NCBI RefSeq assembly: GCF_003231495.1
Contig: NZ_PQWO01000032.1
Coordinates: 1 to 32,000 of the forward strand
Direction of reading: 5' to 3'
DNA from: Acaryochloris thomasi RCC1774
Lineage (GTDB): Bacteria > Cyanobacteriota > Cyanobacteriia > Thermosynechococcales > Thermosynechococcaceae
Length of the DNA stretch: 32,000 nucleotides
Below the pieces are notes generated by a model. It did no database searches, had not been told where the DNA came from, and was given only the letters and a program-made list of their open reading frames with translations. Of this stretch, positions 40-28,997 are shown in pieces. The translations under genes and the position numbers were made by a program. The first letter of the stretch is position 1, and the number at the start of each line of letters is the position of its first letter.

Positions 40-1266
40 ATGGCTCAGGGATATTCCCATGCCGACCTGACGCGAGATGTGGAGATCAAGGTAGGGGGTC
101 GCAAAGTCTTCGAGGTGGCCGGTGGTAAGGTTCTGCTCAATCAGCTTGGGCCAGAGCAGAATCGCAAGATATCTGTTGATATTCCTGGGATTACCTCAGA
201 TTCAACCCCCGCGCAACCCCAGGCCCAGCGCCCCGAGCAAAGACAACCGGATTTCCCCAGCCAGCCGATAGACGCCGCCGAACGTGCGCGAGCCGAACGG
301 GTGAAAACAAACCCGAATCCCCCCGCTCGCCAGAATGTTGTCTCAGGTCCACCTGTCGCAGGACAACAGGTACCGCTCACTCAGCAGCAAGCGCCTTTGC
401 AGACATTTGATGTGCCCCCCGCGCCAGTTCAGCAGTCGCCCCAGCCGGAGCAGCTTCAGCATTCAGCGCAGAGTGAGCCAAGTCTTTCCATTACGAAATC
501 CGACATTGAGCAAGTTGCTGCTGGTGGCAACCCATCGCTTGCGGTGACGATGGCTCGATATCTGATTGTTCGACAGGAATTGAATGCTGACAAGACGAGA
601 GTGAATCAACCCGGCTTTGAATATCTGCAGCCAAAGATAGACAAAGCCGAGCGTGTCCTTCCTGAAGTCCAGTCAAGGCTTGTGGAGGCGATGAAGGATG
701 CAGGAATTGAGCCAAGGTTTGAGTCTCAGGGGCTTGATATTGGTGCATCTCAGCCGGAGCCAGCCCAAGACTTACCCCAGCCAGTGCAGGAAGTGTCTCA
801 GCCGGAGCCAGCTAGCGCTCTCGACTATCTTCAGGAGTCGGATTCACAGCCAGCCCCCGCTCCGGCTGAGCCAGCCAACGAGATAGTCCAAAGCGTTTCT
901 CTAGATGACCCTGAGCTAAGCGTGAATCTAGAGCCTGCCCCTGAGCCTGGGTCCAGAGCGGATGTTCTTGATGCGGCGCATTACCTTGCCAATCAGTTAG
1001 GGGATCGCGATGGCTCCGGCCAGAAGAGCTTCGAGGGTGCCCACTTCAAGATTGAATCCTATGGTGAAGAGCTGAAAGTCTGGGATGGCAATGGCGACAA
1101 GGTGATCGATATTGACCCTGTTACAAACACCGATACCTATCAACCTAGCCCTGAATTTGCAGATATCCTAACCACTTCAGCCAACGAGCTAGAGCAACAT
1201 CAGTTCGGGCAAGAAGCTGAGCAGGAGCAGGAGATAGACGACGGCTTCGAGTTCGGTGATGACTGA
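40..1266 (+). CDS. Pro/Gln-rich hypothetical protein (possibly 5'-truncated by window edge) carrying the shared C-terminal module and acidic tail
   Basis: 408-aa ORF. The same frame is open from nt 1, so the start may lie upstream of the window. Its stop overlaps the coupling-protein start (GGTGATGACTGA). The last 73 aa (1045-1263) align with the C-termini of 12409..12792 and 27810..28997. Confidence 0.7.
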   Translation: MAQGYSHADLTRDVEIKVGGRKVFEVAGGKVLLNQLGPEQNRKISVDIPGITSDSTPAQPQAQRPEQRQPDFPSQPIDAAERARAERVKTNPNPPARQNVVSGPPVAGQQVPLTQQQAPLQTFDVPPAPVQQSPQPEQLQHSAQSEPSLSITKSDIEQVAAGGNPSLAVTMARYLIVRQELNADKTRVNQPGFEYLQPKIDKAERVLPEVQSRLVEAMKDAGIEPRFESQGLDIGASQPEPAQDLPQPVQEVSQPEPASALDYLQESDSQPAPAPAEPANEIVQSVSLDDPELSVNLEPAPEPGSRADVLDAAHYLANQLGDRDGSGQKSFEGAHFKIESYGEELKVWDGNGDKVIDIDPVTNTDTYQPSPEFADILTTSANELEQHQFGQEAEQEQEIDDGFEFGDD

Positions 1267-2923
1267 TTTTCTTGAAGTTCAACCGTCAGATCCAAGCCTC
1301 GTTAGATATGCCAAGAACAACCCGGCTCGTCTTGGGATGCTTTCGGCCTGTGTCCTGGCTGTCTTATTGCTGCAGGTCTTTGCCGGTCAGACCAAAAAGA
1401 CCAAGCTAGCCAAGGGGCATCTTGCCAAGGGGCTGGAGAAGAAGAACGCCCTAAATCTGATGAAGCAACAGCAGGCGGCAAAGAAGCTGACCAAAACTGC
1501 ATTCAACATCAGACAGCCAGGGCAAAAGGGATTTCTGGCAGTCCCTAATGCCCAGCCAGGGGTACTTGTGCTGGGTTCTCCGGGTGCGGGTAAGACGGCC
1601 TCGGTGATCAACCCGCTAGTGAGATCAGCGATTGACCAGGGCCACCGGATCATCATGTTTGACTGGAAGTATCCAGACCAAGCCTCTCAGCTCGTTCCCT
1701 ATGCAGCGGCGAGAGGGTACAAGCGGATCAATGTGTTTGCCCCTGGCTTTGCTGAGAGCCAGCGTATCAACCCCCTGGACCTAATTGAGAGTCCAGAGGA
1801 TATGATCGGTGCCCAGGAGCTAGCCCTCTCCATCCTGCAAAACGATAGCAAGGTTAATACCGATTCGACGACTCAATTTTTCTTGGATAGCGCCGCGAGT
1901 CTATTGGCTCCCATCTTTTGCGTCGTCAAAGGTTGCCAGTACCCCGATCTGCTGACGGTGTTGATGATTCTGCAATCTGAGAACCTCATCGAACGGCTCA
2001 AGTCAGCGAAGATCGGTCGTTATCAGCGCCTGATGCTGCAGCAAGCCATCGCAACCGCAGGCAGTCCAAAGCAGTTGGCGGGTTTGTTGACCTCGACCAT
2101 CAAGCCTTTGACGAACTTCCTACTGGGCGACAACATGATCAACGCCGTTGTTGGAGCGTCAAGCTTTGATCCAATCCTGAGGCCCAAAGAGATGATCGTC
2201 TTTGGGATGGATCGCAATAATTCCGAAGCCTTGAAGCCGTTGATTGGTTCAACCCTTCGGATGACGATGAAAAATAATTTGTTGAATAAATGTGGTGTTC
2301 CTCTTATCGCTTCTCTAGACGAGCTATCAACCCTGGAACTGCCGATTACAGAATGGCTCAATACAAATCGTTCGGATGGTTTTGTGGGCCTGATCGGTTT
2401 GCAGAATCTAGAACAGTGTGACAAGGACCGCCGCCGCGAGTTGAAGACGGGTTGCCCGACCAAAATGCTCTTCAATCCCAATGATGACGAGACTGCAGAA
2501 ATGTTCTCGAAGTGGCTTGGTAAGGAGCAAGTCGGCACAAAATCCAAAACAGAGGGCTGGAGTTCGGGTAAACGTAGCCGTAGCACTTCCGGTCGAGAGC
2601 AAGCCGTGGATATGTTGCAAGCAGCCGATATTCTGAAGCAGCCCGAGGGTGTTGCCTTGGTCCTCAACAGTGGGCATCGCAATGCAAAAGAAGCGTCGGT
2701 CCCCTTCCGGCATCGCTTCACTTATACCAGTAAAGACGAAGCGCAGGAAGCGAAACTGCAAGGGCTTTGGGAAGAAGCCTGTCTGCCTCGGCTCGTCGGA
2801 CGTGCTCCAGCGATGACGGGCGAAGTCGATGCAATGATTAAGGCCAGACGCAACGAAGCCAAGAAACTTCTAGGAAACCCTGATAAAGGGACACACAGGG
2901 GTCCAAAGGGCGGCAATAAATAG
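1256..2923 (+). CDS. Type IV secretion coupling protein (VirD4/TraG/TrwB family)
   Basis: 555 aa with an N-terminal TM segment (LGMLSACVLAVLLLQVFAG). Walker A is VLVLGSPGAGKTAS and Walker B-like is PLIASLDELSTL. GTG 1256 or ATG 1259 start overlaps the upstream stop. Confidence 0.85.
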   Translation: MMTDFLEVQPSDPSLVRYAKNNPARLGMLSACVLAVLLLQVFAGQTKKTKLAKGHLAKGLEKKNALNLMKQQQAAKKLTKTAFNIRQPGQKGFLAVPNAQPGVLVLGSPGAGKTASVINPLVRSAIDQGHRIIMFDWKYPDQASQLVPYAAARGYKRINVFAPGFAESQRINPLDLIESPEDMIGAQELALSILQNDSKVNTDSTTQFFLDSAASLLAPIFCVVKGCQYPDLLTVLMILQSENLIERLKSAKIGRYQRLMLQQAIATAGSPKQLAGLLTSTIKPLTNFLLGDNMINAVVGASSFDPILRPKEMIVFGMDRNNSEALKPLIGSTLRMTMKNNLLNKCGVPLIASLDELSTLELPITEWLNTNRSDGFVGLIGLQNLEQCDKDRRRELKTGCPTKMLFNPNDDETAEMFSKWLGKEQVGTKSKTEGWSSGKRSRSTSGREQAVDMLQAADILKQPEGVALVLNSGHRNAKEASVPFRHRFTYTSKDEAQEAKLQGLWEEACLPRLVGRAPAMTGEVDAMIKARRNEAKKLLGNPDKGTHRGPKGGNK

Positions 2924-5830: not shown

Positions 5831-6517
5831 ATGACTAACGCAACTAATAACGACGCGATCGCCAAGTTGACTCGCAACTCTTTAATCGAGGGCATGTGCA
5901 AACATGCTTCCCAGCATTCTGAAAAGCCAATCGCCAACGCGAAGGGTCTCAGGAACTGGGTCATCGCGACTTACTACGATGAGACCAATGCCGAAGTCGG
6001 TGGTCTTAACGGGTTCGCGCATGACTTGAACTATAAGGCTGTGAGTTTTCGGAAGCGTGAGCATTGCGAAAAGTTGTTTCGTCTATTGTCTGCCGATGCC
6101 TCCGGGTTGACGCAGCGAAAGGCGAAAGTTCAGTCAAAAGGCGGCGGTCGGTTGACGTGGGCAAAAGCCGTACGCGGCGTTGTCTATTTCATTGCGGACC
6201 ATGCAGAAGCTGCAAAAGCGGCTGTAGATGATATCCCAGATTCCGAGCTTAAATTAACGAGCATGAAGTCTGTGAGGAGTCTACAGAGCGCCCTGCAATC
6301 CCGGATTGAAAGCCACAGTGATGATCCTGTCGTCACTTTGCGGGCTGAGATTTACCAGTTGGTAGGGGTCAATACCGAAGACGATCTGCGGCAGTGGTTG
6401 AAAGACCAGTTTGCTCCAGAGGAAGCTGAGGCTATTGATGCTTGGGACTTTAGCAAACATTCGGACCTGCTGACGGTTCAGCGGATTGCTTTAGGTATGC
6501 AACAACAGGAGGCGTAG
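5831..6517 (+). CDS. Hypothetical protein
   Basis: ATG 5831 follows SD TTGGAGAAT. The track start at 5780 lies inside the conserved leader and is unlikely. 228 aa. The C-terminal ~55 aa resemble the product of 6519..6746. Confidence 0.7.
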   Translation: MTNATNNDAIAKLTRNSLIEGMCKHASQHSEKPIANAKGLRNWVIATYYDETNAEVGGLNGFAHDLNYKAVSFRKREHCEKLFRLLSADASGLTQRKAKVQSKGGGRLTWAKAVRGVVYFIADHAEAAKAAVDDIPDSELKLTSMKSVRSLQSALQSRIESHSDDPVVTLRAEIYQLVGVNTEDDLRQWLKDQFAPEEAEAIDAWDFSKHSDLLTVQRIALGMQQQEA

Positions 6518-9140: not shown

Positions 9141-9450
9141 TTTCTTCGGCATAGCATCAAGGCGATTGTTGGGTCTCGTTGAGCAAATGGCTGATGAGTC
9201 CAGTGAATCTGCTGTGGCTATTCTAAGGTCGCCAGACTTGCGAGATCGCCTTGTTTCTTCTGACGATGGCGTGGTTTTGGAGACCCAGATTAGGCCGGAT
9301 GGCATTCATCGGACTGTACTTGGTTCCGATAAGAATTTTTTCGCGAATATTGCCTCCGGTCCTGGTCGCAACACCTTCGATGGGATCGTGGCTGGTGCAT
9401 TGAGGTTGGTAAGTGAGAGCGATGGAGAAGGAGTGCGACCATGCAGATAG
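9133..9450 (+). CDS. Small hypothetical protein (105 aa)
   Basis: ATG 9133 (MSDFFGIASRR..). The upstream part of the track ORF (from 8971) looks non-coding. The 3' end overlaps the next start by 10 nt. Confidence 0.5.
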   Translation: MSDFFGIASRRLLGLVEQMADESSESAVAILRSPDLRDRLVSSDDGVVLETQIRPDGIHRTVLGSDKNFFANIASGPGRNTFDGIVAGALRLVSESDGEGVRPCR

Positions 9451-10973
9451 TGGTACAGAAAATAGGTGACAGCAGCGTTTTGGTGACACCTGACGGCCAG
9501 CCAATCCCATACGTTGATTGTGACGATTGGACGCTTCATTTGATGCCCCAGATTTTGATAAACAGTCGGGTTTCCTCCGTCTCTCTGATTAGGGCGAATC
9601 TGAAGTTGAGGAATGATGGCGCAGGTCCATTAGGGTTGCCGCATTTTACCTTTCATAACGTCCTGCCCATCGACGTTCAGATCACTCAGCCCTTCCCTAA
9701 CGAGAGCTTTTATGTCGCTGGGAGTGTTGATCGCAAGATGGGTTGGGAGTTTCCATTGCTAGAGAATCAGACCTGGGCCGAATTGTCTTTAACTTGGGAA
9801 GTTGATCAGAATCAGCCTTGGACGATCCATCACCGCATCAGATTCAATTTGGAGCATACACAGCAGGGTCATCTCTTCTCAATGGCGAGTGCCAACACTA
9901 TGTTTGGCATCAATTCTCAAAATGCGAAGGCGATCGCGCACTTCGATGAATCATCACTGGGTCATACATTCGCGAAAAGCGATGATTCGTTTCACTGCAG
10001 ATTTGATAAAAGTCACTTCCGTATTGATTTTGAGCAGACACTTGACCTCCAAAGCCATGCCTGGAGTGACGTGCCCCACCTTGAGTTGCTTGAGAATCAA
10101 ACCCAGCTCCACAATATCGAGCCAGCTACAACGTTTTCGACCTATCGCAAAGAGCATCTTTCTTGTGCTTGTTTAGAGATCCCCTCTGACGTTTTGCTTG
10201 AAGCCGTAGAAGATGCGCGACAAGAGACTCATTCATTGTCAGCGGGTCAGTACCACACTTCAAAAGCAGTGCGAAAGATTTGCGACTGGTGGAACCAGAA
10301 TGCCCCGGTCGAATCCTTTCGCCATGCGGGAGGCGTCGAGATTTGGTGTCGGGTCGAAGATGGTCCTGAATATTGGTCGGCTCAGGAGGAACGACCTGAA
10401 ACAGATATCAAGTGCCTCTTAAAGCTAGACCCGAACACCTGTGCCCGTTTTGGCGATCACTTTTTGATTTACTTCCTAGAGAAGCCATCGGAGAATCGCA
10501 TCGACGATAACGATACTCGCTATATCAACTATGTCGATGGAACAAGTTGCACGAATATCTGGGATGAAGTCGAATATAGCTACTTCTCTTGGCAGAGCTT
10601 GTCTGTACTTCCTACGATGTTTCCGGTTGCTTATGAGCAAGTGTTGGCTAAGGGATACAGCCTTACTTCGCCAGAGCGTTTAATTTCTCAGTACCAGAGT
10701 GGAGAGCGTCGTTTTCCGATCCTCGCGCTAAGAGGCGCTAACTTTTCTGGGATGGATTTACGAGGCATCGATTTATGGGAGAGCGATCTGCGGGGTGCCA
10801 ATTTTAGTGGTGCGAACCTTGAAGGTGCATGTCTGGTGGGTTGTGATTTGCGAGGGGTAGATTTCTCGTATGCCAATCTATCGCGCACTGATCTTCGTAA
10901 TGTGTGGATTAAAGCCACGAATCTCTATGGGGCCAATCTAGAGGGGGCAGATCCTTGGCCTCCAGGTGCTTAA
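9441..10973 (+). CDS. Large hypothetical protein with a C-terminal pentapeptide-repeat domain
   Basis: 510 aa with SD GGAGAAGGAG. The C-terminus reads YQSGERRFPILALRGANFSGMDLRGIDLWESDLRGANFSGANLEGACLVGCDLRGVDFSYANLSRTDL.. (A(D/N)LxX repeats). Confidence 0.8.
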   Translation: MQIVVQKIGDSSVLVTPDGQPIPYVDCDDWTLHLMPQILINSRVSSVSLIRANLKLRNDGAGPLGLPHFTFHNVLPIDVQITQPFPNESFYVAGSVDRKMGWEFPLLENQTWAELSLTWEVDQNQPWTIHHRIRFNLEHTQQGHLFSMASANTMFGINSQNAKAIAHFDESSLGHTFAKSDDSFHCRFDKSHFRIDFEQTLDLQSHAWSDVPHLELLENQTQLHNIEPATTFSTYRKEHLSCACLEIPSDVLLEAVEDARQETHSLSAGQYHTSKAVRKICDWWNQNAPVESFRHAGGVEIWCRVEDGPEYWSAQEERPETDIKCLLKLDPNTCARFGDHFLIYFLEKPSENRIDDNDTRYINYVDGTSCTNIWDEVEYSYFSWQSLSVLPTMFPVAYEQVLAKGYSLTSPERLISQYQSGERRFPILALRGANFSGMDLRGIDLWESDLRGANFSGANLEGACLVGCDLRGVDFSYANLSRTDLRNVWIKATNLYGANLEGADPWPPGA

Positions 10974-13141: not shown

Positions 13142-13510
13142 ATGAGGCGAAAGATACCGCTAATGGATAAGGCGATCGCAAGTCTGTCGCTGCTGGGCGT
13201 TGTTCTGATTTTGGTTGCGGCATATCGTAATTTCTTGATCAATGGGACGCTTGCCACAATCGGCTTCCCGAGTCTGATGATGGTGGGCGTATTTTTCACC
13301 CTGCCAACAGTTGAGCTATATCGATACCGGCAGATAAAACCACTGGGTATGTCCTTTCGGGCTGTCATGGTTCTGATCGCAGATCGTTTGTTTTCCGGTG
13401 ATCAGCAGTTCGCTTCGATCTACTGGGAGATAGCCGCCGTTGCGATCGCCCTGCTGTTTGTCTTTTATTTCCCTCGGTTGTGGGGAATGGTAGCTCGTAA
13501 AGTTTATTGA
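13142..13510 (+). CDS. Integral membrane protein (about 4 TM)
   Basis: Start at ATG 13142 (MRRKIPLMDKAIASLSLLGVVLILVAA..). The upstream part of the track ORF overlaps the HNH gene antisense and is unlikely to be coding. Confidence 0.55.
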   Translation: MRRKIPLMDKAIASLSLLGVVLILVAAYRNFLINGTLATIGFPSLMMVGVFFTLPTVELYRYRQIKPLGMSFRAVMVLIADRLFSGDQQFASIYWEIAAVAIALLFVFYFPRLWGMVARKVY

Positions 13511-13758
13511 AATTCACTGATTAACCAGGACTTGTAGCGCTCAACTAAGGCCCGGATAAAGGCCCATTCTTCATCACTGGGATCTGAGAGAACGCCCAGG
13601 TTTTGCCAGCCCCTTTCATAGCAGCGCAACATATCAAAGGGTTCCAAGGACTTCAGCTTTTCCTTATCCGCTTGCCAGCTAATAGCTTCAAGGAAAGGGA
13701 GCTGTTCTGGAATATCGATTGCGTCCATTCGTTTGATCATTTCGTGCTTTTGCTCCAT
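13504..13758 (-). CDS. Small hypothetical protein downstream of the relaxase (84 aa)
   Basis: ATG 13758 lies 20 nt after the relaxase stop. The track start at 13866 would overlap the relaxase 3' end. No family recognised. Confidence 0.5.
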   Translation of the reverse strand: MEQKHEMIKRMDAIDIPEQLPFLEAISWQADKEKLKSLEPFDMLRCYERGWQNLGVLSDPSDEEWAFIRALVERYKSWLISEFQ

Positions 13759-13777
13759 CTTGGCAAATTTCCTCGCA

Positions 13778-16700
13778 TCAATACTCAAACCCTTCCTCTT
13801 GCTCCATTTCATACTCATGAGCCGCAAGCTCCTTCTCCAGCCAGGGACTTTCCTGCGCCCATTCATCCAGTGTCGAATAGCTCAAGTCGCTCAACTGATT
13901 ACCCCGCGCCAGCCAGTCGTCGATCCCCAGCTTGCCCTGGTCATTCCCTGGCATCTCGGCCACCTCCACCTTGGCTCCCTGTTGCTCTAGCAGCCGACCG
14001 AACCGATGCATTGCGATGGCAACATTCCGTAGTGTCTTGGTCTTCTCCGGTGGATCTTTGTCGAAGCACAGCACCACCGTCCGGCTCTGCCAGTTGTATT
14101 GCTTGAGATGTCCATCGAGATACCGCTGCTCATTGTCATCTTTGCTGTAGCCCCCATTGACGCCATTGAGAGCAATCGCATCAATACCCCTGGTATAGAT
14201 TGCAGCGCCCTTCTTGGCCCCTTCAGTAATCCAGACTTCCTTGGTTTCGTTCTTGATGTCATCGAGATCCTTGGCAAAGGCAAAGTGACTGCGGTGTGAG
14301 GGCAGGTTTTGTGACGCCTTTGGAATAGACTCGTACTTGCGTTCTTTCAGCTCTGGCTTGTAGTTTGCAGGCTTTTCCAGGTTCTGCACCTGACCATTTT
14401 TCAGGTAGATGGTGAAGCGATCCTTGTCCTTCTCCTCAGTGACGGGTGTATTAGGCTTGAGTTGCCCCCACGGTTCGCCATTGAACGGCCTGCCTTCACA
14501 CCAGAGTCCGCCCGCTTCAAGATGCTCGTATCGAGCTAAGAACTTTTCTACCTGAGCTGTGGTGTATTGGGTGCCGTGGCCTGCGAATTGCCCCATCGCG
14601 TAGTTGAGTAAATGTTCCTTGGCCCCTGGCCCATCGAGAGACCAGAAATACTTCGCAGCCACTTGGGGATGGATTGATGAATCTTTGACCAGCTCCACCC
14701 ACCGCTCTTTCTCGATGTAAGTGGGTCTCAGGTATTCCAGCGCTTGCAATCTCTGTGTTGTCCACACTCGTCCTGTCTTTTCTGTTGACTGCTGTGGAGC
14801 TTCGTTAGCTACTTGAGCTTCAGCCTCCAGCCTGTCCTTCTTCAGTACCGGCTTTTCAACTTGTGGCTGAGTCGGTGGCTGGGTGGGTTGCCTATCCTTC
14901 TTCAGTACTGGCTTCTCCACCACAGGTTTTGCCTTCTTCTGAGGTTTGGGTGTGACATCAATGCCCATATTCCGCATCTGCTCCGTTAATCTCTGCAGCT
15001 CCTCTCTCGACACCTCAGGATTGGACCTGAGTGTCTGAACGAGCAGAGCCAATCGCTGTACATCGGCCTGCTGCTCAATCCAGTTTTCAACGTGATCGCC
15101 TAGGCCCACAAAGACCTGCATGTGTTCGGCTATGGCATCCTGTTGCTGGGTCTCGTGAATCGCCTTAGCTAGCTCCTGCACCCCTTCAAGAGAAGGCTGC
15201 TGCCTCGTCATCTGCTCTAGGCTATGGCCCACATGGTTGAGCTTATCGGTGAGGCCCGACTCTAGCAGTGTCCCCACGTCGGCCTGCTGTTGAATTAGCT
15301 CAGCCAACTCAGCCATCTGTGGGTACTGCATCCACTGTTCCAACCTGCCGCTGACTTCAGTGATGACCTCAGCCACCTGCTCCATTGCTTGCTGTTTGGT
15401 GATGACCTCTGCCAACTGTTCGATGCCATGTTGTCCTCTGAGACGATCCATCACGCCCGAGAACTCAGCGGCCACCTCAGCAATGAGCTGTTGCTCCTGC
15501 CAGCCGTGTAATGCCTCCGCTAACTCCTGCACCTGTGGCCTGACGGTTGACGGTCCCGTGAACTCCCGAAGTAGCTCCATCACCTGAGCTTGATCGCCTG
15601 CAGCCATCGCCTCCACCATGCGCTGTTCGTTGGTCCACTGCCCCACAGCGTTAGTGATGTGATCTGCCACCCCTTTTGTGAGGCTCTGGTCAATCTGTAG
15701 CTGCAGAGCATCAAGCGTCTCTGAGATGAGGGGCAACGACTCAGCAAAGGTTTGTTCGATGTCACCTGAATGAATCACTTCAGCTAGTTCTTCTATACCC
15801 TCGAAAGTGATTCCTGATGGTCTTTGGTTCTCAACGACGCTAGCTAGCTCCTGCAGCTTTTCACCTAAGCCAGATTCAGCGATTACCTGCAGGTCCGCAT
15901 TCGTCTGAATCGCATCGGCGAGTTCAACGAGATTGTGATTCTGGCTTAGGTGCTGCAAGCGTTCTCCAAGTGCGGCACCCACCTCCAGCATGACCGCTTC
16001 AGCTTGGTTGTGTGAGATCGCATCTGCGAGTGAATCAATGGAGCTTGAGAGATCAGGTTGATGAACCTTCTCTTGAGCCAGCTCCAGTGATTTGTCGATG
16101 GTCAGTCCTAACTTTTCTAGCGCCTGATTGATGCCCGGTAGCGTTTCCGCCAATACTTCCTGAGCATTAAAAGTATTGATGTCGTTGGCTAGTTCGTTGA
16201 TGGAGCGTTTGAGGGCTGCATCTGATTGGTCTCTAGAGACGTTGGCAGGCTCGCCGTATCCGGTAGATCGATCGTCAGTGATGAGCGACCCGTTAGCCCG
16301 TGCCGCTTCAACTCTCCCACTAAGTCTTGCAACTGCTCCATCCAGTCTTGATTGGTGCCCAGCATCGAGACGTTGTTGAGCTGCGCGTCGTTGATTTGGG
16401 TCATCAAAGCGTCGAGCCTTCCGTAAAGCTGCTTGATGCTCTGGGCTAGGTCGTCGTTCTTCTTGCCCTTCAGCGCTTCGCTCAGTGCTTCGGTGAACTC
16501 CATCAGATGCCCGTTGAGAACCACTGGCATTGTATTCATCGACTGATTGACCAATTGATGCACCTTCTTGTGTCTGGCTTCGTTGTTCTCGTTGAGCTGT
16601 TGATTGTGCTGGATCAAGAGCCGATTCTGTTGCTCGACTGACATCAACCGTCCGTTGGCTGTCTCCAACTGCCTGCTTATGGTTTGGTTCTGCTTCTCGA

Positions 16701-17761
16701 CTGCCGTCAGCCTCTCGCTCATGACTTGGTTCTGCTGCTTGATCTCGTTCACGAGTGTTAGTAGTTCTTCCATGATTGATGTCCTCTGGTTTTGTGGGTT
16801 GAACGGTTGAAGCCTTTTCTGCCGTAGTCCTTTCTATGCCCTGCTGTTCTTCACGCACAGGGATAGAGACCACGTTTTCTTGAACGATATGCAGCCTGGG
16901 ATTTTGCAGGTCCACCCCCTGCGCTCTGTCGTGCCACTGCTGCTTTAATTTCTGGGGTTCTTCGAGTTCCTTGACGGGGCGGTTTTGCAGGCTAATGTGC
17001 TTTAGCTCTCGCCAGCCTGTAACGCCCTTGGCTTGGGCAATCGCTTCTATTTCCACGGTGCGCTGGGAGAAGGCCCGTAGCTGTTCTTTTGTATACCCAG
17101 TGATATCGAAGGTATCGTTTGGCTTCCAGACAATCCCGTAGCCAATCTGTTGTAGGTTGGCGGCGAGTTCATGTTGATACCGAACGCCTAAGTCACGTCG
17201 GCTATCTCGAAAGAAGCTTTCGTTCCGCAGTGCTCTCCATTTGCCATCACTGCAGTAGCTGGTGTTCATGATGATGGCGTGGGTATGGAGCTGCGGATCC
17301 ATCTTGCGACTGGTGGCATGGGTGAAGGTGGCAATCGCTAACTTGCCGGTGATCTCCTTCTGGCGTTTACCTCCGGTGCGGATCTCAACGAGGGAGTGAT
17401 TCAGTTCAATTTCCTTGAGGACCGCATCAACGGCTTCTCGATGAGCCTTAATCACTCGCGTGTCATTCCAGACCAGTGCTTGCAGGCTAACTGACTTGGG
17501 CGCAGAGAACGTGAGGTCGTAACCTCCCCTGGTTTTATTCCCGGCATTGCTGACGCCGCGTAGTCTGACGCCGTTGGGCGCTCTGCCGTGGATGAACCTT
17601 CGGAAGTCTTCTGCCTCCACTGCACCCTCAAGGCAAACCTGCGCGGCAAGGTTTCCATACCAGCGTGACCCACAGGCATTTTCTTCCTGCGCGTAGTAGG
17701 AATCTTCTTGTTCGTAGTAGGAGGCTGCTGCCTCTGGTCTGACGTTGTGGGCGGTGAGCAT
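13778..17761 (-). CDS. Relaxase (TrwC/TraI-like, MOBF-type N-terminus) with a repeat-rich linker and a C-terminal Toprim/DUF3854-like domain
   Basis: The N-terminus AAASYYEQEDSYYAQ (paired Tyr motifs) and HATSRKMDPQLHTHAIIMN (3-His motif) match the TrwC pattern. The C-terminus carries VWITEGAKKGAAI, VLCFDKD and GIDDWL (Toprim-like E, DxD). The middle holds ~8 degenerate LAExI repeats. Confidence 0.9.
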   Translation of the reverse strand: MLTAHNVRPEAAASYYEQEDSYYAQEENACGSRWYGNLAAQVCLEGAVEAEDFRRFIHGRAPNGVRLRGVSNAGNKTRGGYDLTFSAPKSVSLQALVWNDTRVIKAHREAVDAVLKEIELNHSLVEIRTGGKRQKEITGKLAIATFTHATSRKMDPQLHTHAIIMNTSYCSDGKWRALRNESFFRDSRRDLGVRYQHELAANLQQIGYGIVWKPNDTFDITGYTKEQLRAFSQRTVEIEAIAQAKGVTGWRELKHISLQNRPVKELEEPQKLKQQWHDRAQGVDLQNPRLHIVQENVVSIPVREEQQGIERTTAEKASTVQPTKPEDINHGRTTNTRERDQAAEPSHEREADGSREAEPNHKQAVGDSQRTVDVSRATESALDPAQSTAQREQRSQTQEGASIGQSVDEYNASGSQRASDGVHRSTERSAEGQEERRPSPEHQAALRKARRFDDPNQRRAAQQRLDAGHQSRLDGAVARLSGRVEAARANGSLITDDRSTGYGEPANVSRDQSDAALKRSINELANDINTFNAQEVLAETLPGINQALEKLGLTIDKSLELAQEKVHQPDLSSSIDSLADAISHNQAEAVMLEVGAALGERLQHLSQNHNLVELADAIQTNADLQVIAESGLGEKLQELASVVENQRPSGITFEGIEELAEVIHSGDIEQTFAESLPLISETLDALQLQIDQSLTKGVADHITNAVGQWTNEQRMVEAMAAGDQAQVMELLREFTGPSTVRPQVQELAEALHGWQEQQLIAEVAAEFSGVMDRLRGQHGIEQLAEVITKQQAMEQVAEVITEVSGRLEQWMQYPQMAELAELIQQQADVGTLLESGLTDKLNHVGHSLEQMTRQQPSLEGVQELAKAIHETQQQDAIAEHMQVFVGLGDHVENWIEQQADVQRLALLVQTLRSNPEVSREELQRLTEQMRNMGIDVTPKPQKKAKPVVEKPVLKKDRQPTQPPTQPQVEKPVLKKDRLEAEAQVANEAPQQSTEKTGRVWTTQRLQALEYLRPTYIEKERWVELVKDSSIHPQVAAKYFWSLDGPGAKEHLLNYAMGQFAGHGTQYTTAQVEKFLARYEHLEAGGLWCEGRPFNGEPWGQLKPNTPVTEEKDKDRFTIYLKNGQVQNLEKPANYKPELKERKYESIPKASQNLPSHRSHFAFAKDLDDIKNETKEVWITEGAKKGAAIYTRGIDAIALNGVNGGYSKDDNEQRYLDGHLKQYNWQSRTVVLCFDKDPPEKTKTLRNVAIAMHRFGRLLEQQGAKVEVAEMPGNDQGKLGIDDWLARGNQLSDLSYSTLDEWAQESPWLEKELAAHEYEMEQEEGFEY
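16189..16773 (-). CDS. Nested out-of-frame ORF (194 aa, coiled-coil-like) inside the relaxase linker
   Basis: ATG 16773 is preceded by AGAGGACATCAATC (SD GAGGA, 8-nt spacing). The product MEELLTLVNEIKQQNQVMSERLTAVEKQNQTISRQLE.. is heptad-like, whereas the relaxase frame here is low-complexity R/S/A/Q/E. Confidence 0.45.
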   Translation of the reverse strand: MEELLTLVNEIKQQNQVMSERLTAVEKQNQTISRQLETANGRLMSVEQQNRLLIQHNQQLNENNEARHKKVHQLVNQSMNTMPVVLNGHLMEFTEALSEALKGKKNDDLAQSIKQLYGRLDALMTQINDAQLNNVSMLGTNQDWMEQLQDLVGELKRHGLTGRSSLTIDLPDTASLPTSLETNQMQPSNAPSTN

Positions 17762-17782
17762 TGAGATGAACTTTGCGTCTAT

Positions 17783-17815
17783 TCATCTATTGCAAGTGGC
17801 CGAAAAAGCTGTCGA
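17783..17815 (-). promoter_or_regulatory. Conserved promoter/operator-like box, copy 5 (drives the relaxase)
   Basis: Minus strand reads TCGACAGCTTTTTCGGCCACTTGCAATAGATGA. The box ends ~24 nt before relaxase ATG 17761. Confidence 0.6.
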
Positions 17816-17816
17816 A

Positions 17817-17846
17817 GCCCCAGTTTTTTCTAACGTGCTCTGGGGC
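17817..17846. other. Inverted repeat GCCCCAG-N16-CTGGGGC abutting box 5
   Basis: 7-bp perfect arms. The position relative to the box mirrors the terminator-plus-box arrangement of the plus-strand cassettes. Confidence 0.4.
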
Positions 17847-17900
17847 GTAATCCTTATGCAGTCTTTGTCTTACCGCCTTCCTTTCTTTTTCCGTGTTTTG

Positions 17901-17930
17901 GGCGCGGGAGCGCCGTACTGTCTGAATCCT
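17901..17930 (+). other. Candidate oriT core: hairpin GGCGC-GGGA-GCGCC followed by GTACTGTCT|GAAT (putative nic after 17923)
   Basis: Resembles my recollection of the R388 (TrwC) oriT, GCGCACC-GAAA-GGTGCGT-ATTGTCT|ATAG. Located 140 nt upstream of the MOBF-like relaxase, which is transcribed away from it. Confidence 0.45.
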
Positions 17931-18717
17931 CCGGGAAATTAAGTTACGCGTAAGTACTTCTTCCGCTCCAGGCTGCCTCCCGAATAAGCGAGAGCATTAC
18001 TCTTAGGGCTAGGGTTCCGGCCAGAGTTGACGAAAGGATACGGCTGACGAACTGTAGCCTGATCGCATAGGCCCCAGAACGTCCATGAGTTCAGCTTGGC
18101 GAAAGTCTTGGGTTGAGAGATGTGGCAAGGGAGCGGTAAGTCTGGGGCTGACGAATGGTGCTAACTCCCAGTAGCTCTCCTGTTGTCCTGTTCGCAAGTC
18201 TCAAGGTTAGGGCAAGGGGGCAAGACGGTTTGCGGATGTAGCCACCTCTAGAAAAGCTCTATCTCTCCGGTATGAAGTATCTGAGCGTAAGTCCTGGGGT
18301 GAGAGTTGTAGTGCTAGGGCGGGTTGGATTGGGGCGTCTGACTACTGCAGGCTCTCGTGAGTCTTGTGACACTGGCAAGAGAGTCTATCTGAAAGCGCTG
18401 AGGTTAAGGGTGTGCTTTGGAGCCGAATCAAGAGCTGTACAGCAGCTCCGTAGCCGCGATCTCCCTGTTTTGAACGGTCTGATTGTAGGTCTTGGGATTG
18501 GGGCTGTGGTAAGTGGTCTGTATCGAAAGACCTAAACAATTGCAATTTCACCCCGTAACGCCGACTTCTTCTCCTGAAACTTCTCTTTCGTGAGTCTTGG
18601 AGGTGCTGTTGCGATAAAGGACTCGTAACGATAGTGATGAAGTAATGTAAACAGCTTTGTAACCCATGAGGCGTAGTAGATAGGAAGCCTTTCAATGGCA
18701 CCAGATTTCACCTTAAT

Positions 18718-18750
18718 AACAGCTATTTTTGCGACTTGCAATAGATATAT
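18718..18750 (+). promoter_or_regulatory. Conserved promoter/operator-like box, copy 6
   Basis: AACAGCTATTTTTGCGACTTGCAATAGATATAT. About 25 nt upstream of SD AGGAG and ATG 18775. Confidence 0.6.
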
Positions 18751-18774
18751 AACCGCGTAAATAGGAGTAGCTCG

Positions 18775-19041
18775 ATGACAGAGTTAAGACCTCACACAAC
18801 CCTCTTATTGTTAGAGCTTATATGGGAAGGAACCTACATACGACCATCCGCTCAACGTGATTGGGTAGAGCAGAACTTTGAACGTCTTCAACTGCTGCTT
18901 GAGAAGCAGGCTTACACCAAGGTCTGTGAACAATTTGCTGATGAGATTCAAATCAGTCCCGCAACGCTGTCCAAGCATTACAAAGCAACGAAGAAAAATA
19001 AACGCTGGCAGCGAGGAAAACCTCGTCGCCAGGATAGATAG
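18775..19041 (+). CDS. Small basic-tailed protein, putative DNA-binding (paralogue of 19113..19532)
   Basis: 88 aa. RDWVEQNFERLQLLLEKQ..ISPATLSKHYKATKK aligns with HHQWVEKHFALLQDMIEKQ..LSPQTLQKHYQAVKK. Confidence 0.65.
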   Translation: MTELRPHTTLLLLELIWEGTYIRPSAQRDWVEQNFERLQLLLEKQAYTKVCEQFADEIQISPATLSKHYKATKKNKRWQRGKPRRQDR

Positions 19042-19112: not shown

Positions 19113-19532
19113 GTGACTGATTTCAAGAAAATACAAGACCTCCTAGAAGAACTGCATGACGAAGGGGATCATATCCCTGAGCGTTCATCGATTCATCATC
19201 AGTGGGTAGAGAAGCACTTCGCTCTCCTTCAAGACATGATTGAGAAGCAGAGACACCCGCTCAAAAAAATAACGGAAAAATTAAAGGCAGAGATCACTCT
19301 AAGCCCTCAAACACTGCAGAAACATTACCAAGCCGTTAAGAAGCTCAAGCTTGCGGAAGCCAGACGTGCAAAGAAAAATCAGACTACTGAAGCTGCCACC
19401 TCTGCTGCCGTTTGCGATCGCAGAGGTGGCAGCACTAAACAATCTCGGGCAAGGGTAAAACCTCCAGAGGTGGACTTGTCGAAGATCAGTCCACCGCCTC
19501 AATTAGTACATGCAGAAATTGTAGAGGATTAA
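19113..19532 (+). CDS. Small protein, putative DNA-binding (paralogue of 18775..19041) with an extended basic tail
   Basis: GTG start after SD TGGAG. 139 aa. Paralogy as described for 18775..19041. Confidence 0.65.
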   Translation: MTDFKKIQDLLEELHDEGDHIPERSSIHHQWVEKHFALLQDMIEKQRHPLKKITEKLKAEITLSPQTLQKHYQAVKKLKLAEARRAKKNQTTEAATSAAVCDRRGGSTKQSRARVKPPEVDLSKISPPPQLVHAEIVED

Positions 19533-20932: not shown

Positions 20933-21793
20933 CTAGGCCGCTACAGCAACCGGCTGCAGTGCTGCAGCTTCCACTGCTGCGATGATTTCCTTCGCCGCCT
21001 TCTGAATGCGAGAGCCGGATTCCTTGAGCTGTGCGATCGCATCGTCGGTTCCGCTCATCCAGTCGCTAACGTAGGCAAAACTATAGTCACCGGAATCGAG
21101 GTCCAGGGCATTGAGGACCACGAAGGCGACTGATTCAGCCTCTAGCTCTAGAACAGACCGCTCGTTATGCATCCGGTAGTCTTGGGCAGAATGCATCAAC
21201 GCATGACCTAGCTCGTGGGCCATTGTTTTCGCTTGGTGCAACGGCGATAGCAGGGGGTTAATGGTGATTTCAATGCCTCCTGGTGCAAAGTAGCACTGAC
21301 CGTTAGGACCAGTAGAGTTAAACTGAGTCTTGAAGACCTTGCTATGAGCAAAGTCTCGGAGGGCGTTAAACAGTCCCTGATCGTCTCCTTGTATTGGGTT
21401 GCAGATATCGGGTAACTCTTCCCCATCTGTTTGGGAGATATCGAAGACCGTTGCCGTCTTAAATCCTGAGATGATCCGCTTTGAGTCGCCGCTCTCTTGG
21501 TCTTCAATCTTTCGGGTTACTGGAGCAAATATGGTGATGCCCTTCTCTCCCTTGCGGACCTGTCGGCCCATCTTCTGCCAGACGCGATAGCCTGCCACTC
21601 TAGACGCTTCAGGCATTTGCTCACGGATCATGACGATATTTCGGAACGAGTACTGATTAAAGCGGCTCTGGAAGGATAGATACTCCTGCCAGTCGCCGGA
21701 CGTTGCTAGGGCTGCAATACCGGCTTCGAGCTTGGCGAGGGCTTCGGTCTGCTTTTGCTCGGCGGCCGCTTTGTTGGCTTTGAATTTTGTCAT
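20933..21793 (-). CDS. ardC: ArdC-type antirestriction protein (N-terminal ssDNA-binding domain plus HExxH metalloprotease domain)
   Basis: 286 aa. YSFRNIVMIREQ..GYRVWQKMGRQVRKGEKGITIFAP matches the ArdC-N/DUF1738 pattern. The C-terminus carries MAHELGHALMH. Confidence 0.8.
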   Translation of the reverse strand: MTKFKANKAAAEQKQTEALAKLEAGIAALATSGDWQEYLSFQSRFNQYSFRNIVMIREQMPEASRVAGYRVWQKMGRQVRKGEKGITIFAPVTRKIEDQESGDSKRIISGFKTATVFDISQTDGEELPDICNPIQGDDQGLFNALRDFAHSKVFKTQFNSTGPNGQCYFAPGGIEITINPLLSPLHQAKTMAHELGHALMHSAQDYRMHNERSVLELEAESVAFVVLNALDLDSGDYSFAYVSDWMSGTDDAIAQLKESGSRIQKAAKEIIAAVEAAALQPVAVAA

Positions 21794-27809: not shown

Positions 27810-28997
27810 TCAGTCAATTTCCCAGCCGTCGTCTTCGACCTCGATCTCCGGGTCGATCTCTGAGTAGCGTTCTGGGAAAAGCTCCTGTTCATAGGACTCG
27901 AACATTCTGATATCTTCAGAGGTCACCGCATATTGAACTCTGTCGTTTGTCTCAGTGAAAATAACGCCCCGTTCATCTGTGGCTGAGATAGTGAGCTTAT
28001 CGTCTGAGAACTCAAGCACATAGTCGTCGTTAACCAGTCGATTGACTCCCTTGTCTTTGGCCTCTTCCCGATAGAAGTTTGCGACATCTGAGAAGGTTTC
28101 AATCGTGCTTTGATCTAGCTCATTGTCCTTATCGAGTGCTGGCTCTGGTGCTGGGTAAACCCACGGCTCGATTTCCCTGCCGCTTACCTGTGAGACCAGT
28201 CGTTCGAGTAATGTTGCCATCTGGAAGGGGCCAACGCCACCCGGTACCGGCGTCAAATGCTGGGGAATGTCGTAGGCAGAGCGACTGACATCACCGCGAG
28301 GTTTTCCTTCGCCGGGAATGAAGCCTGCATCGACGACTAGGCGGTGTTCGGGGATGATGTGTTGCTCATCCAAAAGCTCGGGTGTACCTGTGGCTGAAAC
28401 GACGATATTCGCTTTACGGGTTTGGGTTTCGTCATCTCCGATTTCGATTTCTATGGTGTCGATACCAGCTTCTTTGAGGAGTTTGACGACTCCTTCGCCC
28501 ACGTAGCCGCCAGCGCCAACGACAGCTACGGTATCTCCTTCCTGAGCGAAGGATTCGACTAAGCGGTAAATTGTCTCAGAAGTAGCCGAGGTAGGGAAGT
28601 AGGGATTATCGCTGCGCATCCCATCGATGTCTTTCTCGAAAGAGATTTGCGGTAGTAGCTTCTTTAAGTCGTCAGGAATTGGATTCTGGACAATCAAACC
28701 AACAGAGTTTGCATTGGCCTCTATCAATAGATTCCTAAAGACATCCGGCGTAGTGAGAGAATCAAGTATAGGTTGTTTAACTTGACAGCCAAGTGCTGAA
28801 AATGTTTTCGCTTTATGCTCTGTCGAAAATCGAGCGGCTTCGTATTTTGCAAGTTCAATGGGGTCTTGTTCTGTTTCAGGCGGTAGGAAGCGAATAATTG
28901 TTACCTGTTCCTGGTTGCAGATGTTTTGAAACTCAGCCAGCCTGGATTTAACTTGTTTGAGGATAGAACTACCGTTGACTTTAGATGTCACGGGCAA
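27810..28997 (-). CDS. FolD-like methylenetetrahydrofolate dehydrogenase/cyclohydrolase homologue fused to the shared C-terminal module and acidic tail
   Basis: VGLIVQNPIP, KDIDG, VAVVGAGGYVGEGVVKLL, IVVSATG and TPVPGGVGPFQMATLLERL parallel FolD motifs. The last 68 aa (27813-28016) resemble 1045-1263 and end EVEDDGWEID. Confidence 0.75.
   Translation of the reverse strand: MPVTSKVNGSSILKQVKSRLAEFQNICNQEQVTIIRFLPPETEQDPIELAKYEAARFSTEHKAKTFSALGCQVKQPILDSLTTPDVFRNLLIEANANSVGLIVQNPIPDDLKKLLPQISFEKDIDGMRSDNPYFPTSATSETIYRLVESFAQEGDTVAVVGAGGYVGEGVVKLLKEAGIDTIEIEIGDDETQTRKANIVVSATGTPELLDEQHIIPEHRLVVDAGFIPGEGKPRGDVSRSAYDIPQHLTPVPGGVGPFQMATLLERLVSQVSGREIEPWVYPAPEPALDKDNELDQSTIETFSDVANFYREEAKDKGVNRLVNDDYVLEFSDDKLTISATDERGVIFTETNDRVQYAVTSEDIRMFESYEQELFPERYSEIDPEIEVEDDGWEID

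Follow-up and report, generated by a model that had tools for sequence, protein, structure and literature searches.

The gene for a conjugative relaxase of Acaryochloris thomasi RCC1774 very probably contains a second, genuine protein-coding gene, which occupies positions 16189-16773 (minus strand) of the window, the whole stretch of 32,000 nucleotides that was analyzed. This nested gene is overprinted on the relaxase gene in frame +1 and is linked to a repeat array; it would possess its own start and a product maintained by selection, and the host frame over the same bases would be a stop-free tether. In the open reading frame listing, the nested gene begins with ATG and consists of 194 codons plus a TAG stop. 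As the original prediction had stated, it is encoded by the same strand as the relaxase and is located wholly within the relaxase gene (13778-17761, minus strand); its offset of 988 nt within this gene corresponds to frame +1. At this location, the +1 frame is open for 214-215 codons, which is the longest alternative-frame opening of the host gene.

According to the open reading frame listing and Pfam, the host gene encodes a MOBF relaxase of 1327 amino acids, which is 100% identical to the "Multifunctional conjugation protein TraI" of Acaryochloris thomasi RCC1774. The TrwC relaxase domain (aa 11-281; 16919-17731; PF08751, E = 4e-72) is followed by a hydrophilic linker, an acidic array of degenerate repeats with a pI of 4.4 (aa 525-932; 14966-16188), a P/K-rich linker (aa 933-998; 14768-14965) and a DUF3854 domain (aa 1173-1286; 13904-14245; PF12965, E = 1e-23), all on the minus strand. 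The PF08751 score exceeds the curated cut-off, which defines the gene as MOBF (TrwC-type). DUF3854 is described as Toprim-related (PMC10079941). The protein does not possess an AAA_30 helicase domain, and among the relatives this is the case only in L013. The host gene is surrounded by a conjugative region, which includes a coupling protein as well as an ArdC-like gene. The part of the hydrophilic linker that shares its bases with the nested gene (aa 330-524; 16190-16774, minus strand) is located outside the catalytic TrwC domain. In this part, the residues LIVMFWY account for 11% of the sequence versus 28% elsewhere in the protein, in agreement with the earlier description of the relaxase frame as being of low complexity over the overlap. 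It had also been proposed that structured repeats resume where the nested frame ends. Indeed, the acidic repeats, in which an ELAxxI...AE motif recurs every 36-45 residues (once after 88), start exactly at the nested stop codon.

The openness of the second frame is weak evidence by itself. A stop in the +1 frame requires an xTA or xTG codon, and such codons specify hydrophobic residues; along a hydrophilic linker, stops in this frame are therefore automatically few. We resampled synonymous codons while the relaxase protein was held fixed. The probability of finding no +1 stop was 0.008 for the A. thomasi locus; the chance of order 1e-4 given in the original prediction was thus about 100-fold too optimistic. 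For the Acaryochloris marina-type loci, the probability was 0.16-0.51 in five of six and 0.07 in L027. Openness alone is not significant in these loci, and it is the comparative evidence that is convincing. These values favor the explanation that there is no nested protein at all. In other words, the open frame would be a by-product of a hydrophilic linker without xTA or xTG codons, and the low synonymous variation described below would stem from an element that acts as RNA or DNA, for example a structure in the mRNA or a regulatory site inside the gene. We consider this explanation extremely improbable: in the Nostoc loci, 3-7 nested-frame stops were expected and none was seen, and the substitutions described below also argue against it.

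By tblastn, homologues of the nested gene were found in about 25 plasmids, 17 from Nostoc and 8 from Acaryochloris. All of them underlie a mobF, DUF3854 or AAA-ATPase CDS, except for two in which the relaxase is interrupted or decayed, and none is annotated as a gene in these plasmids. Gene callers overlook the nested gene because it is inside a gene of 4-6 kb. In 19 of the 19 intact loci inspected, the nested ORF is in frame +1 of a host ORF of 1300-2140 amino acids, on the same strand. The original prediction would have been contradicted by stops in the nested frame of homologues; the frame is open at every locus with this linker (the 19 intact loci and L030, an additional, sixth lineage in which AGGAG precedes a TTG start). 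In the closest relative, L013, whose relaxase is 51% identical, the start, stop and length of the nested ORF are unchanged and there are no indels. Over the overlap, the amino acid identity between L013 and A. thomasi is 76% in the nested frame and 55% in the relaxase frame, and the differences at nested codon positions 1, 2 and 3 number 33, 22 and 72, respectively. Between clades, the nested proteins are still similar (17-29% identity, with the common motif F...KK...L), and indels among the homologues leave the nested frame intact.

The nested gene appears to have its own translation start signals. In A. thomasi, a GAGGA Shine-Dalgarno-like motif (16782-16786, minus strand) can be read directly from the sequence, as had been claimed, with an 8-nt spacer to the nested ATG (16771-16773, minus strand), which lies across the host codons CAT-G.. 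(His-Gly). In all 15 aligned homologous loci from three clades, the ATG is conserved at this point and an AGGA/AGG/GGAG-type motif is present 5-9 nt upstream; both are kept despite differing host residues around them. This conservation bears on the possibility that the nested frame is entered by programmed ribosomal frameshifting (+1 or -2), which would produce a truncated relaxase with a coiled-coil C-terminus. Both frames are read from one strand and one mRNA, the ATG is preceded by 3-32 open codons in the +1 frame, and frameshift products are common in mobile elements (PMC5009743). However, the ATG and the properly spaced Shine-Dalgarno-like motif are unnecessary for a frameshift product. 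Furthermore, in the A. marina loci and in Nostoc L016 and L023 the +1 frame is closed by a stop codon just 3-6 codons before the ATG, and this 9-18-nt space contains no visible conserved slippery motif. Frameshifting is therefore highly unlikely. We propose instead that the nested gene would be translated from its own ATG behind the conserved AGGA-type ribosome-binding site. The template would most likely be the relaxase mRNA, because a search for an internal promoter consensus for the nested gene found none.

As the original prediction had led us to expect, variation at synonymous sites of the relaxase breaks down precisely where the nested ORF lies, and this was observed both in a sliding window and in pairwise contrasts. 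In the sliding window, the relaxase shows about 35 third-position differences per 60 codons, a number that drops to 4-8 only at aa 350-500. The codon-position profile inside the overlap differed from that outside in 14 of 14 pairwise contrasts (chi-square p = 7e-3 to 6e-17), which span three clades, share lineages and are not all independent, so that they represent roughly three to five independent clades. Host position 3 was the least variable and position 1 the most variable in 13 of these contrasts (there was one tie, in which position 3 equaled position 2), and outside the overlap the pattern was reversed. The most divergent pair, L001-L027, was saturated, the three positions being about equal (54-62%). 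OLGenie-style estimates of dN/dS were 0.19-0.44 for the nested frame, every bootstrap interval being below 1, and 0.91-1.91 for the host frame over the overlap, with intervals that span 1. As judged from these substitution patterns, the nested frame is under purifying selection, and the amino acid sequence of the relaxase in the overlap drifts neutrally, yet is held stop-free. Given the nested protein, 7-15 host-frame stops were expected (11 in A. thomasi), and none was found in any of 15 loci (P < 2e-4 each). If the open frame were only a by-product of the linker, several of these observations would be difficult to accommodate: the substitutions show a period of three with the nested third position most variable, the dN/dS values of the two frames differ (0.2-0.4 versus about 1), amino acid similarity persists between clades and the nested frame survives indels. 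A codon-usage test of which frame is older pointed one way in Acaryochloris and the other way in Nostoc.

The nested gene and the repeat array appear to be one inherited unit, which has been repositioned relative to DUF3854 between lineages. Both are present in 19 loci and both are absent from 8 complete loci, and the nested gene is always directly 5′ of the acidic repeat array. The position of this module relative to DUF3854 varies by clade: it precedes DUF3854 in Acaryochloris and follows it in Nostoc, and among the relatives the overlap is placed after the helicase or after DUF3854. Thus, the earlier statement that the nested gene lies in the linker between relaxase and Toprim domains is correct for A. 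thomasi, where the overlap precedes DUF3854, but does not apply in general, the nested gene being tied to the repeat array and its Nostoc copy being downstream of DUF3854. The overlap part of the relaxase is probably only a flexible hydrophilic tether, by which the acidic repeat array would be attached to the TrwC domain (in relatives, to the helicase or to DUF3854). A further idea, which we regard as unlikely, is that the unit is a portable dual-coding cassette of ancient origin, which has entered cyanobacterial relaxases at different points. In that case, the small protein would assemble on the array of the relaxase that encodes it as a cis-acting scaffold, for example one that docks the complex of relaxase and DNA to the coupling protein, and the relaxase frame would be a secondary read-through of a once free-standing gene.

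The heptad coiled coil originally proposed for the nested product was borne out by computation. The hydrophobic periodicity has its peak at 3.5 residues (power 1.88 versus about 0.1 at other periods), a and d positions are discernible in the heptad layout, and AlphaFold2 predicts a long helix at residues 2-78 (pLDDT 82-94 for residues 1-60 and 75 for residues 61-70). In the predicted product, the heptad coiled coil occupies the N-terminal part (about aa 1-78) and is followed by three shorter helices, which carry the family motif F-x(3)-L/F-x(6)-K/Q-K/R (F93, K104, K105, L116), and by a disordered tail. Across the family (110-194 amino acids), the proteins are predicted to be all-helical; the length of their coiled coil varies, and their C-terminal helical domain is conserved. 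Their hydrophobic content is normal (0.27-0.32), versus 0.09-0.22 in the host linker. Searches of Pfam, NCBIfam and PDB found no homologue of known function and gave only generic coiled-coil noise; in the Pfam and NCBIfam scans of 13 nested proteins, no mobilization family was found and only coiled-coil families below threshold appeared.

In R1162/RSF1010, MobB binds MobA, stabilizes the relaxosome and is needed for the type IV transport of MobA. By analogy, the small protein may assist the relaxase as an accessory factor of conjugation, probably via the repeat array next to it. We put this forward tentatively, as a possibility a little short of an even chance, and a MobB-like function in particular is an analogy. 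Embedding of the gene would fix both its co-expression and its co-inheritance with the relaxase. The nested proteins are mildly acidic (pI 4.5-5.9), as is the repeat array; simple charge complementarity therefore gives no support for their mutual binding. It is also conceivable, although somewhat unlikely, that the nested gene is real and has a function unrelated to relaxase processing, namely entry exclusion, regulation of transfer genes, partition or maintenance, or that it is a selfish passenger hidden in an essential plasmid gene. The database searches and the profile comparisons with MbeB and MbeD revealed no homology of the nested protein to any relaxosome protein; ColE1 MbeD, likewise encoded within a relaxase gene, bears the annotation of a mobilization/exclusion protein; and overlaps can shield costly genes against loss (PMC8528312). 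In contrast, the nested gene is strictly co-inherited with the relaxase repeat array, is never free-standing among the 25 plasmids, and has no match among 1.84 billion representative proteins. From these three observations we argue that its role would be tied to the relaxase module.

Comparison with known systems places the nested gene as follows. The precedent cited in the original prediction is correct: mobB of RSF1010/R1162 (MOBQ, IncQ) is within mobA/repB on the same strand, in another frame and downstream of the catalytic relaxase domain (PMC2200642, PMC5572225). In both systems, a relaxase gene thus wholly contains a small gene that shares its strand, uses another frame and is situated past the catalytic domain, and in both the host is a multidomain protein (a primase fusion in RSF1010, a fusion to the Toprim-related DUF3854 here). 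However, the host here is a MOBF TrwC-type protein of 1300-2140 amino acids from large cyanobacterial plasmids, and the nested gene goes with the acidic repeat array rather than with a relaxase-primase junction, being located after DUF3854 in Nostoc; the mobilization-family scans in Pfam and NCBIfam likewise gave no match. In ColE1-type plasmids (MOB-HEN/MOBP), the accessory genes mbeB and mbeD (also called mobB and mobD) are internal to the mbeA/mobA relaxase gene, and the coordinates mobA 1659, mobB 2347 and mobD 2872 (PMC9282650) place both in frame +1, like the nested gene. Unlike here, the hosts are small mobilizable enterobacterial plasmids and no repeat array is associated with mbeB or mbeD; moreover, alignment of the 13 nested sequences to MbeB and MbeD with hhalign found no profile relationship (probabilities 0.1% and 2.4%, respectively). 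The ribbon-helix-helix accessory proteins TrwA, TraY and MobC/MbeC are also small and assist the relaxase, but they are encoded beside it, whereas the nested product is encoded inside the relaxase gene and is predicted to be an all alpha-helical coiled coil (no beta strand predicted by AlphaFold2 and no match to a ribbon-helix-helix family). Long genes that are overprinted on the same strand and have a disordered partner frame are well known in viruses and rarely established in bacteria. Few long overlapping prokaryotic genes are established (PMC9927249). As in those cases, one frame here is under clear purifying selection, the other is hydrophilic and of low complexity, and synonymous variation is suppressed; in contrast to them, the unconstrained frame is the long annotated gene and the constrained frame is the hidden one.

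The nested gene is thus a well-supported bacterial case of a kind of which few have been established: it overlaps its host gene on the same strand over 110-194 codons and is clearly under purifying selection. The division of labor is unusual, since the hidden frame would carry the selected protein sequence and the annotated frame would be only a stop-free tether. With this finding, about 25 sequenced plasmids of cyanobacteria, including plasmids of the model strains Nostoc punctiforme PCC 73102 and Acaryochloris marina MBIC11017, gain a protein family that is missing from their annotation. Experiments on cyanobacterial conjugation in which these relaxases are engineered or deleted, or in which the "disordered linker" is judged, would be confounded if the nested gene were not taken into account. 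Furthermore, the theme of an accessory gene inside a relaxase gene, known from small plasmids of the MOBQ and MOB-HEN types, is widened to include large relaxases of the MOBF class, and its recurrence across relaxase classes points to a general advantage in locking an accessory factor to its relaxase.

Both frames of the overlap are maintained among homologues, as the original prediction implied. A tblastn search against plasmids found homologues of the nested gene always beneath relaxase genes, on 8 Acaryochloris and 17 Nostoc plasmids; carriers include pNPUN01 (Nostoc punctiforme PCC 73102) and pREB1, pREB3 and pREB6 (A. marina MBIC11017). The 19 intact loci all have the nested ORF in the +1 frame of a very long host ORF (1300-2140 aa). 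The closest relative, L013 (protein P0002, from a JGI metagenome), has a relaxase with 51% identity over the full length, and its nested ORF shares the start (MEELL), stop (STN*) and length of that in the window with zero indels. In L030 (NCBI GCA_041748255.1), which represents a further lineage, the ORF is present with a TTG start and AGGAG before it.

The nested ORF itself (16189-16773, minus strand) has 194 codons and begins at an offset of 988 nt into the relaxase gene, overlapping relaxase aa 330-524. The ORF, its ATG and a GAGGA motif placed 8 nt 5' of this ATG are all present as predicted. Over the same nucleotides, the relaxase frame is indeed hydrophilic and of low complexity (LIVMFWY residues, 11% vs 28% elsewhere), and an acidic repeat array of the ELAxxI...AE type starts exactly at the nested stop codon. 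The expectation of a coiled coil was also borne out: the nested product has a clear hydrophobic periodicity of 3.5 residues, and in the AlphaFold2 model (mean pLDDT 65) a helix at residues 2-78 is accompanied by three shorter ones, and the tail is disordered. Across loci, the nested proteins range from 110 to 194 aa. Each has, at its N-terminus, a Q/N/E/L-rich coiled coil whose length varies, and also a conserved helical domain; F93, K104, K105 and L116 (window numbering) are near-invariant. The pNPUN01 sequence includes MTTNNNPTQIQLLTEKIEELL.

The openness of the second frame had been given a chance probability of about 1e-4. When the relaxase protein was fixed, synonymous codons were resampled from the gene's own usage and +1 stops were scored, the probability of no +1 stop was 0.008 for the window. 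The earlier value thus erred on the optimistic side by a factor of about 100. The probability was 0.001 for the closest relative, 0.16-0.51 for five of the six A. marina-type relatives and 0.07 for the sixth (L027). A +1 stop requires an xTA or xTG codon in the host frame, and such codons specify hydrophobic residues. Because the hydrophilic linker is short of these residues, +1 stops are scarce anyway, and the openness of the nested frame exceeds chance only weakly. Much stronger evidence came from the reverse test, in which the nested protein was fixed: the relaxase frame should then contain 7-15 stops, but it has none in any of the 15 loci (P < 2e-4 each). Thus, the relaxase frame is held open across the overlap.

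Selection on the two frames was then compared. Over the overlap, identity between the window and L013 is 78% for DNA, 76% for the nested protein and 55% for the relaxase frame, and the 127 differences fall at nested codon positions 1, 2 and 3 as 33, 22 and 72. In a sliding window along the relaxase, third-position differences drop from about 35 to 4-8 per 60 codons only at aa 350-500, where first positions are the most variable; elsewhere the ratio of third- to first-position differences is never under 1.08. In all 14 pairwise contrasts in three clades (A. thomasi, A. marina and Nostoc types), the codon-position profile in the overlap differed from that in the remainder (chi-square p 7e-3 to 6e-17). 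The suppression of synonymous variation expected from the original prediction was seen in 13 of these contrasts: over the overlap, host position 3 was the least variable (with one tie with position 2) and position 1 the most. L001-L027 is the most divergent pair and is saturated. We also estimated dN/dS from uncorrected p-distances with an OLGenie-like partition of sites, and bootstrapped codons to obtain intervals. For the nested frame it was 0.19-0.44 with every bootstrap interval below 1, and for the relaxase frame in the overlap 0.91-1.91 with every interval spanning 1. Therefore, on the dN/dS values and the codon-position pattern together, selection preserves the nested protein within the overlap. 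The amino-acid sequence of the relaxase drifts freely there, constrained only to stay stop-free. Unusually, it is the annotated frame that lacks constraint. We consider it very probable that the nested ORF is a real, second, selected protein-coding gene in the +1 frame.

The start region is conserved in its signals. An ATG is present at the homologous position in 15 of 15 aligned loci, with a purine-rich AGGA, AGG or GGAG motif 5-9 nt upstream in every one, and the host residues at this site vary by clade (PEDINHG, LIEETYG and PIGQTHD). A frameshift from the relaxase frame would be another way to enter the +1 frame. In the A. marina loci and two Nostoc loci (L016 and L023), however, a +1 stop lies just 3-6 codons 5' of the ATG, and therefore there is no space for a conserved frameshift site. 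A scan within the relaxase gene for sigma-70-like promoters found none. Judged from these sequence features, the simplest reading is that the nested ORF would be translated by internal initiation on the relaxase mRNA.

In every case, the acidic repeat array of the host frame begins at the end of the nested gene. This array was found in all loci with the nested gene and was absent from all complete loci without it (L003, L005, L006, L007-L010 and L015). The domain order is TrwC, nested gene with repeats, DUF3854 in the window; TrwC, helicase, nested gene with repeats, DUF3854 in A. marina; and TrwC, helicase, DUF3854, nested gene with repeats in Nostoc. Because the position depends on the clade, we regard the nested gene and the repeat array as one unit, which has been rearranged relative to DUF3854. 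The mobF products of L003 (Nostoc sp. PCC 7120 pCC7120gamma) and L005 (Tolypothrix sp. PCC 7910) belong to the same TrwC-helicase-DUF3854 family and lack this unit. They carry an in-frame, coiled-coil-like C-terminal extension of about 250 aa, in which the nested-protein HMM detected no homology.

Two Nostoc loci are disrupted. In L018 (Nostoc sp. UHCC 0302 plasmid unnamed3), the relaxase is split by an IS1380 transposase, and the unannotated 3' remnant retains an intact nested ORF and repeat array. L017 (Nostoc sp. C057 p057_J) was left out as evidence because homopolymer frameshifts break both frames. At 5880-6420 its relaxase is annotated as many small fragments with several frame changes, a run of at least 20 G is read as eight consecutive Gly codons, and a "hypothetical protein" CDS covers the first part of the nested ORF before running on in another frame. 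This locus is probably a long-read homopolymer error or a decayed copy.

Neither a word-indexed search (5.8 billion clustered proteins) nor an exhaustive phmmer search (1.84 billion representative proteins) matched the nested product. For the relaxase linker plus repeats (671 aa), a word-indexed search gave no match either, even to the identical database protein, probably an artefact of low-complexity words. Its absence from predicted proteins is as expected if gene callers never call it. No separate CDS for the nested gene was present in the plasmid gene tables inspected, which are incomplete. An exact look-up in a 15-billion-protein collection missed 9 of 10 nested sequences; the sole match was the A. 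marina pREB3 version, on short Logan contigs, which is also in UniParc. Profile scans of genome contigs gave no match with the nested alignment and, with the DUF3854 alignment, only Nostocales relaxases without the module; scans of metagenome contigs gave no match. Pfam, NCBIfam and PDB profile searches with the nested proteins returned only sub-threshold, generic coiled-coil matches.

A CAI-like codon-usage test for the older of the two frames gave contradictory answers. In 7 Acaryochloris-type loci the nested frame scored as the normal, "true" coding frame and the host frame as an off-frame; in 8 Nostoc loci the result was the reverse. Either frame could therefore be the older one: the nested gene may have arisen by de novo birth within the linker or by read-through capture of a once free-standing gene.

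L030 has a further overlap. Its host ORF (501-6203 of contig JBGTDP010000191.1) encodes a TrwC-helicase of 1900 aa, and the nested-gene homologue lies at host aa 1111-1248. Over host aa 1335-1636, there is another ORF in the +1 frame, about 274 codons long and with an ATG start, whose product resembles a coiled coil with a transmembrane segment after it (GILTMFGISAVITSTILWMLIQVW). Over this ORF, the relaxase reading is P/Q/R/S-rich and of low complexity. The ORF could represent another hidden gene; alternatively, the C-terminal third annotated for the host ORF could be in the wrong reading frame.

The host relaxase in the window (13778-17761, minus strand; 1327 codons) matches "Multifunctional conjugation protein TraI" from Acaryochloris thomasi RCC1774 at 100% identity. 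It contains a TrwC relaxase domain at aa 11-281 (Pfam, E = 4e-72) and DUF3854 at aa 1173-1286 (Pfam, E = 1e-23); a PDB sequence search with DUF3854 gave no meaningful match. The AAA_30/TraI helicase domain, which lies between TrwC and the remainder in all other family members examined, is missing from this relaxase and from that of L013. The gene context is that of a conjugative region and includes a type IV coupling protein (1256-2923, plus strand) and an ArdC-N/M78 anti-restriction-like protein (20933-21793, minus strand). A pentapeptide-repeat protein (9441-10973, plus strand) and a FolD-like dehydrogenase/cyclohydrolase (27810-28997, minus strand) are also encoded. A 120-codon ORF without a Pfam match (13504-13866, minus strand) overlaps the 3' end of the relaxase gene by 89 nt. 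Divergent from the relaxase gene are two small paralogous genes in tandem (18775-19041 and 19113-19532, plus strand; 47% identity over 70 aa, E = 3e-15), which could encode accessory proteins that act in the relaxosome or bind oriT; oriT perhaps lies in the intergenic region at 17762-18774.

In R1162, MobB has a stabilising effect on the relaxosome, and type IV transport of MobA depends on it. By analogy, the nested gene may encode a relaxase accessory factor, although we hold this assignment only tentatively, at slightly less than even chances. The small coiled-coil protein would then cooperate in conjugation with the relaxase that encodes it. The adjacent repeat array would be its probable route of action, the hydrophilic host segment over the overlap would serve as a tether only, and the embedding would secure co-transcription and co-inheritance with the relaxase. 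Because the repeats are acidic and the nested proteins mildly so, simple electrostatic pairing between them is unsupported. The precedent named in the original prediction is documented: mobB lies within mobA/repB of RSF1010 (PMC2200642, PMC5572225), and the likeness is that of an accessory gene inside a relaxase gene. In ColE1-type plasmids, mbeB and mbeD lie within mbeA as internal genes, both in the +1 frame by the coordinates of PMC9282650, as in the window. Profile comparison with ColE1 MbeB and MbeD detected no homology. Our literature searches turned up no account of a gene nested in a relaxase of the MOBF class or of cyanobacteria. The architecture of the locus, with an accessory gene nested in that for the relaxase, is known; both the relaxase class in which it occurs here and the protein family are new.
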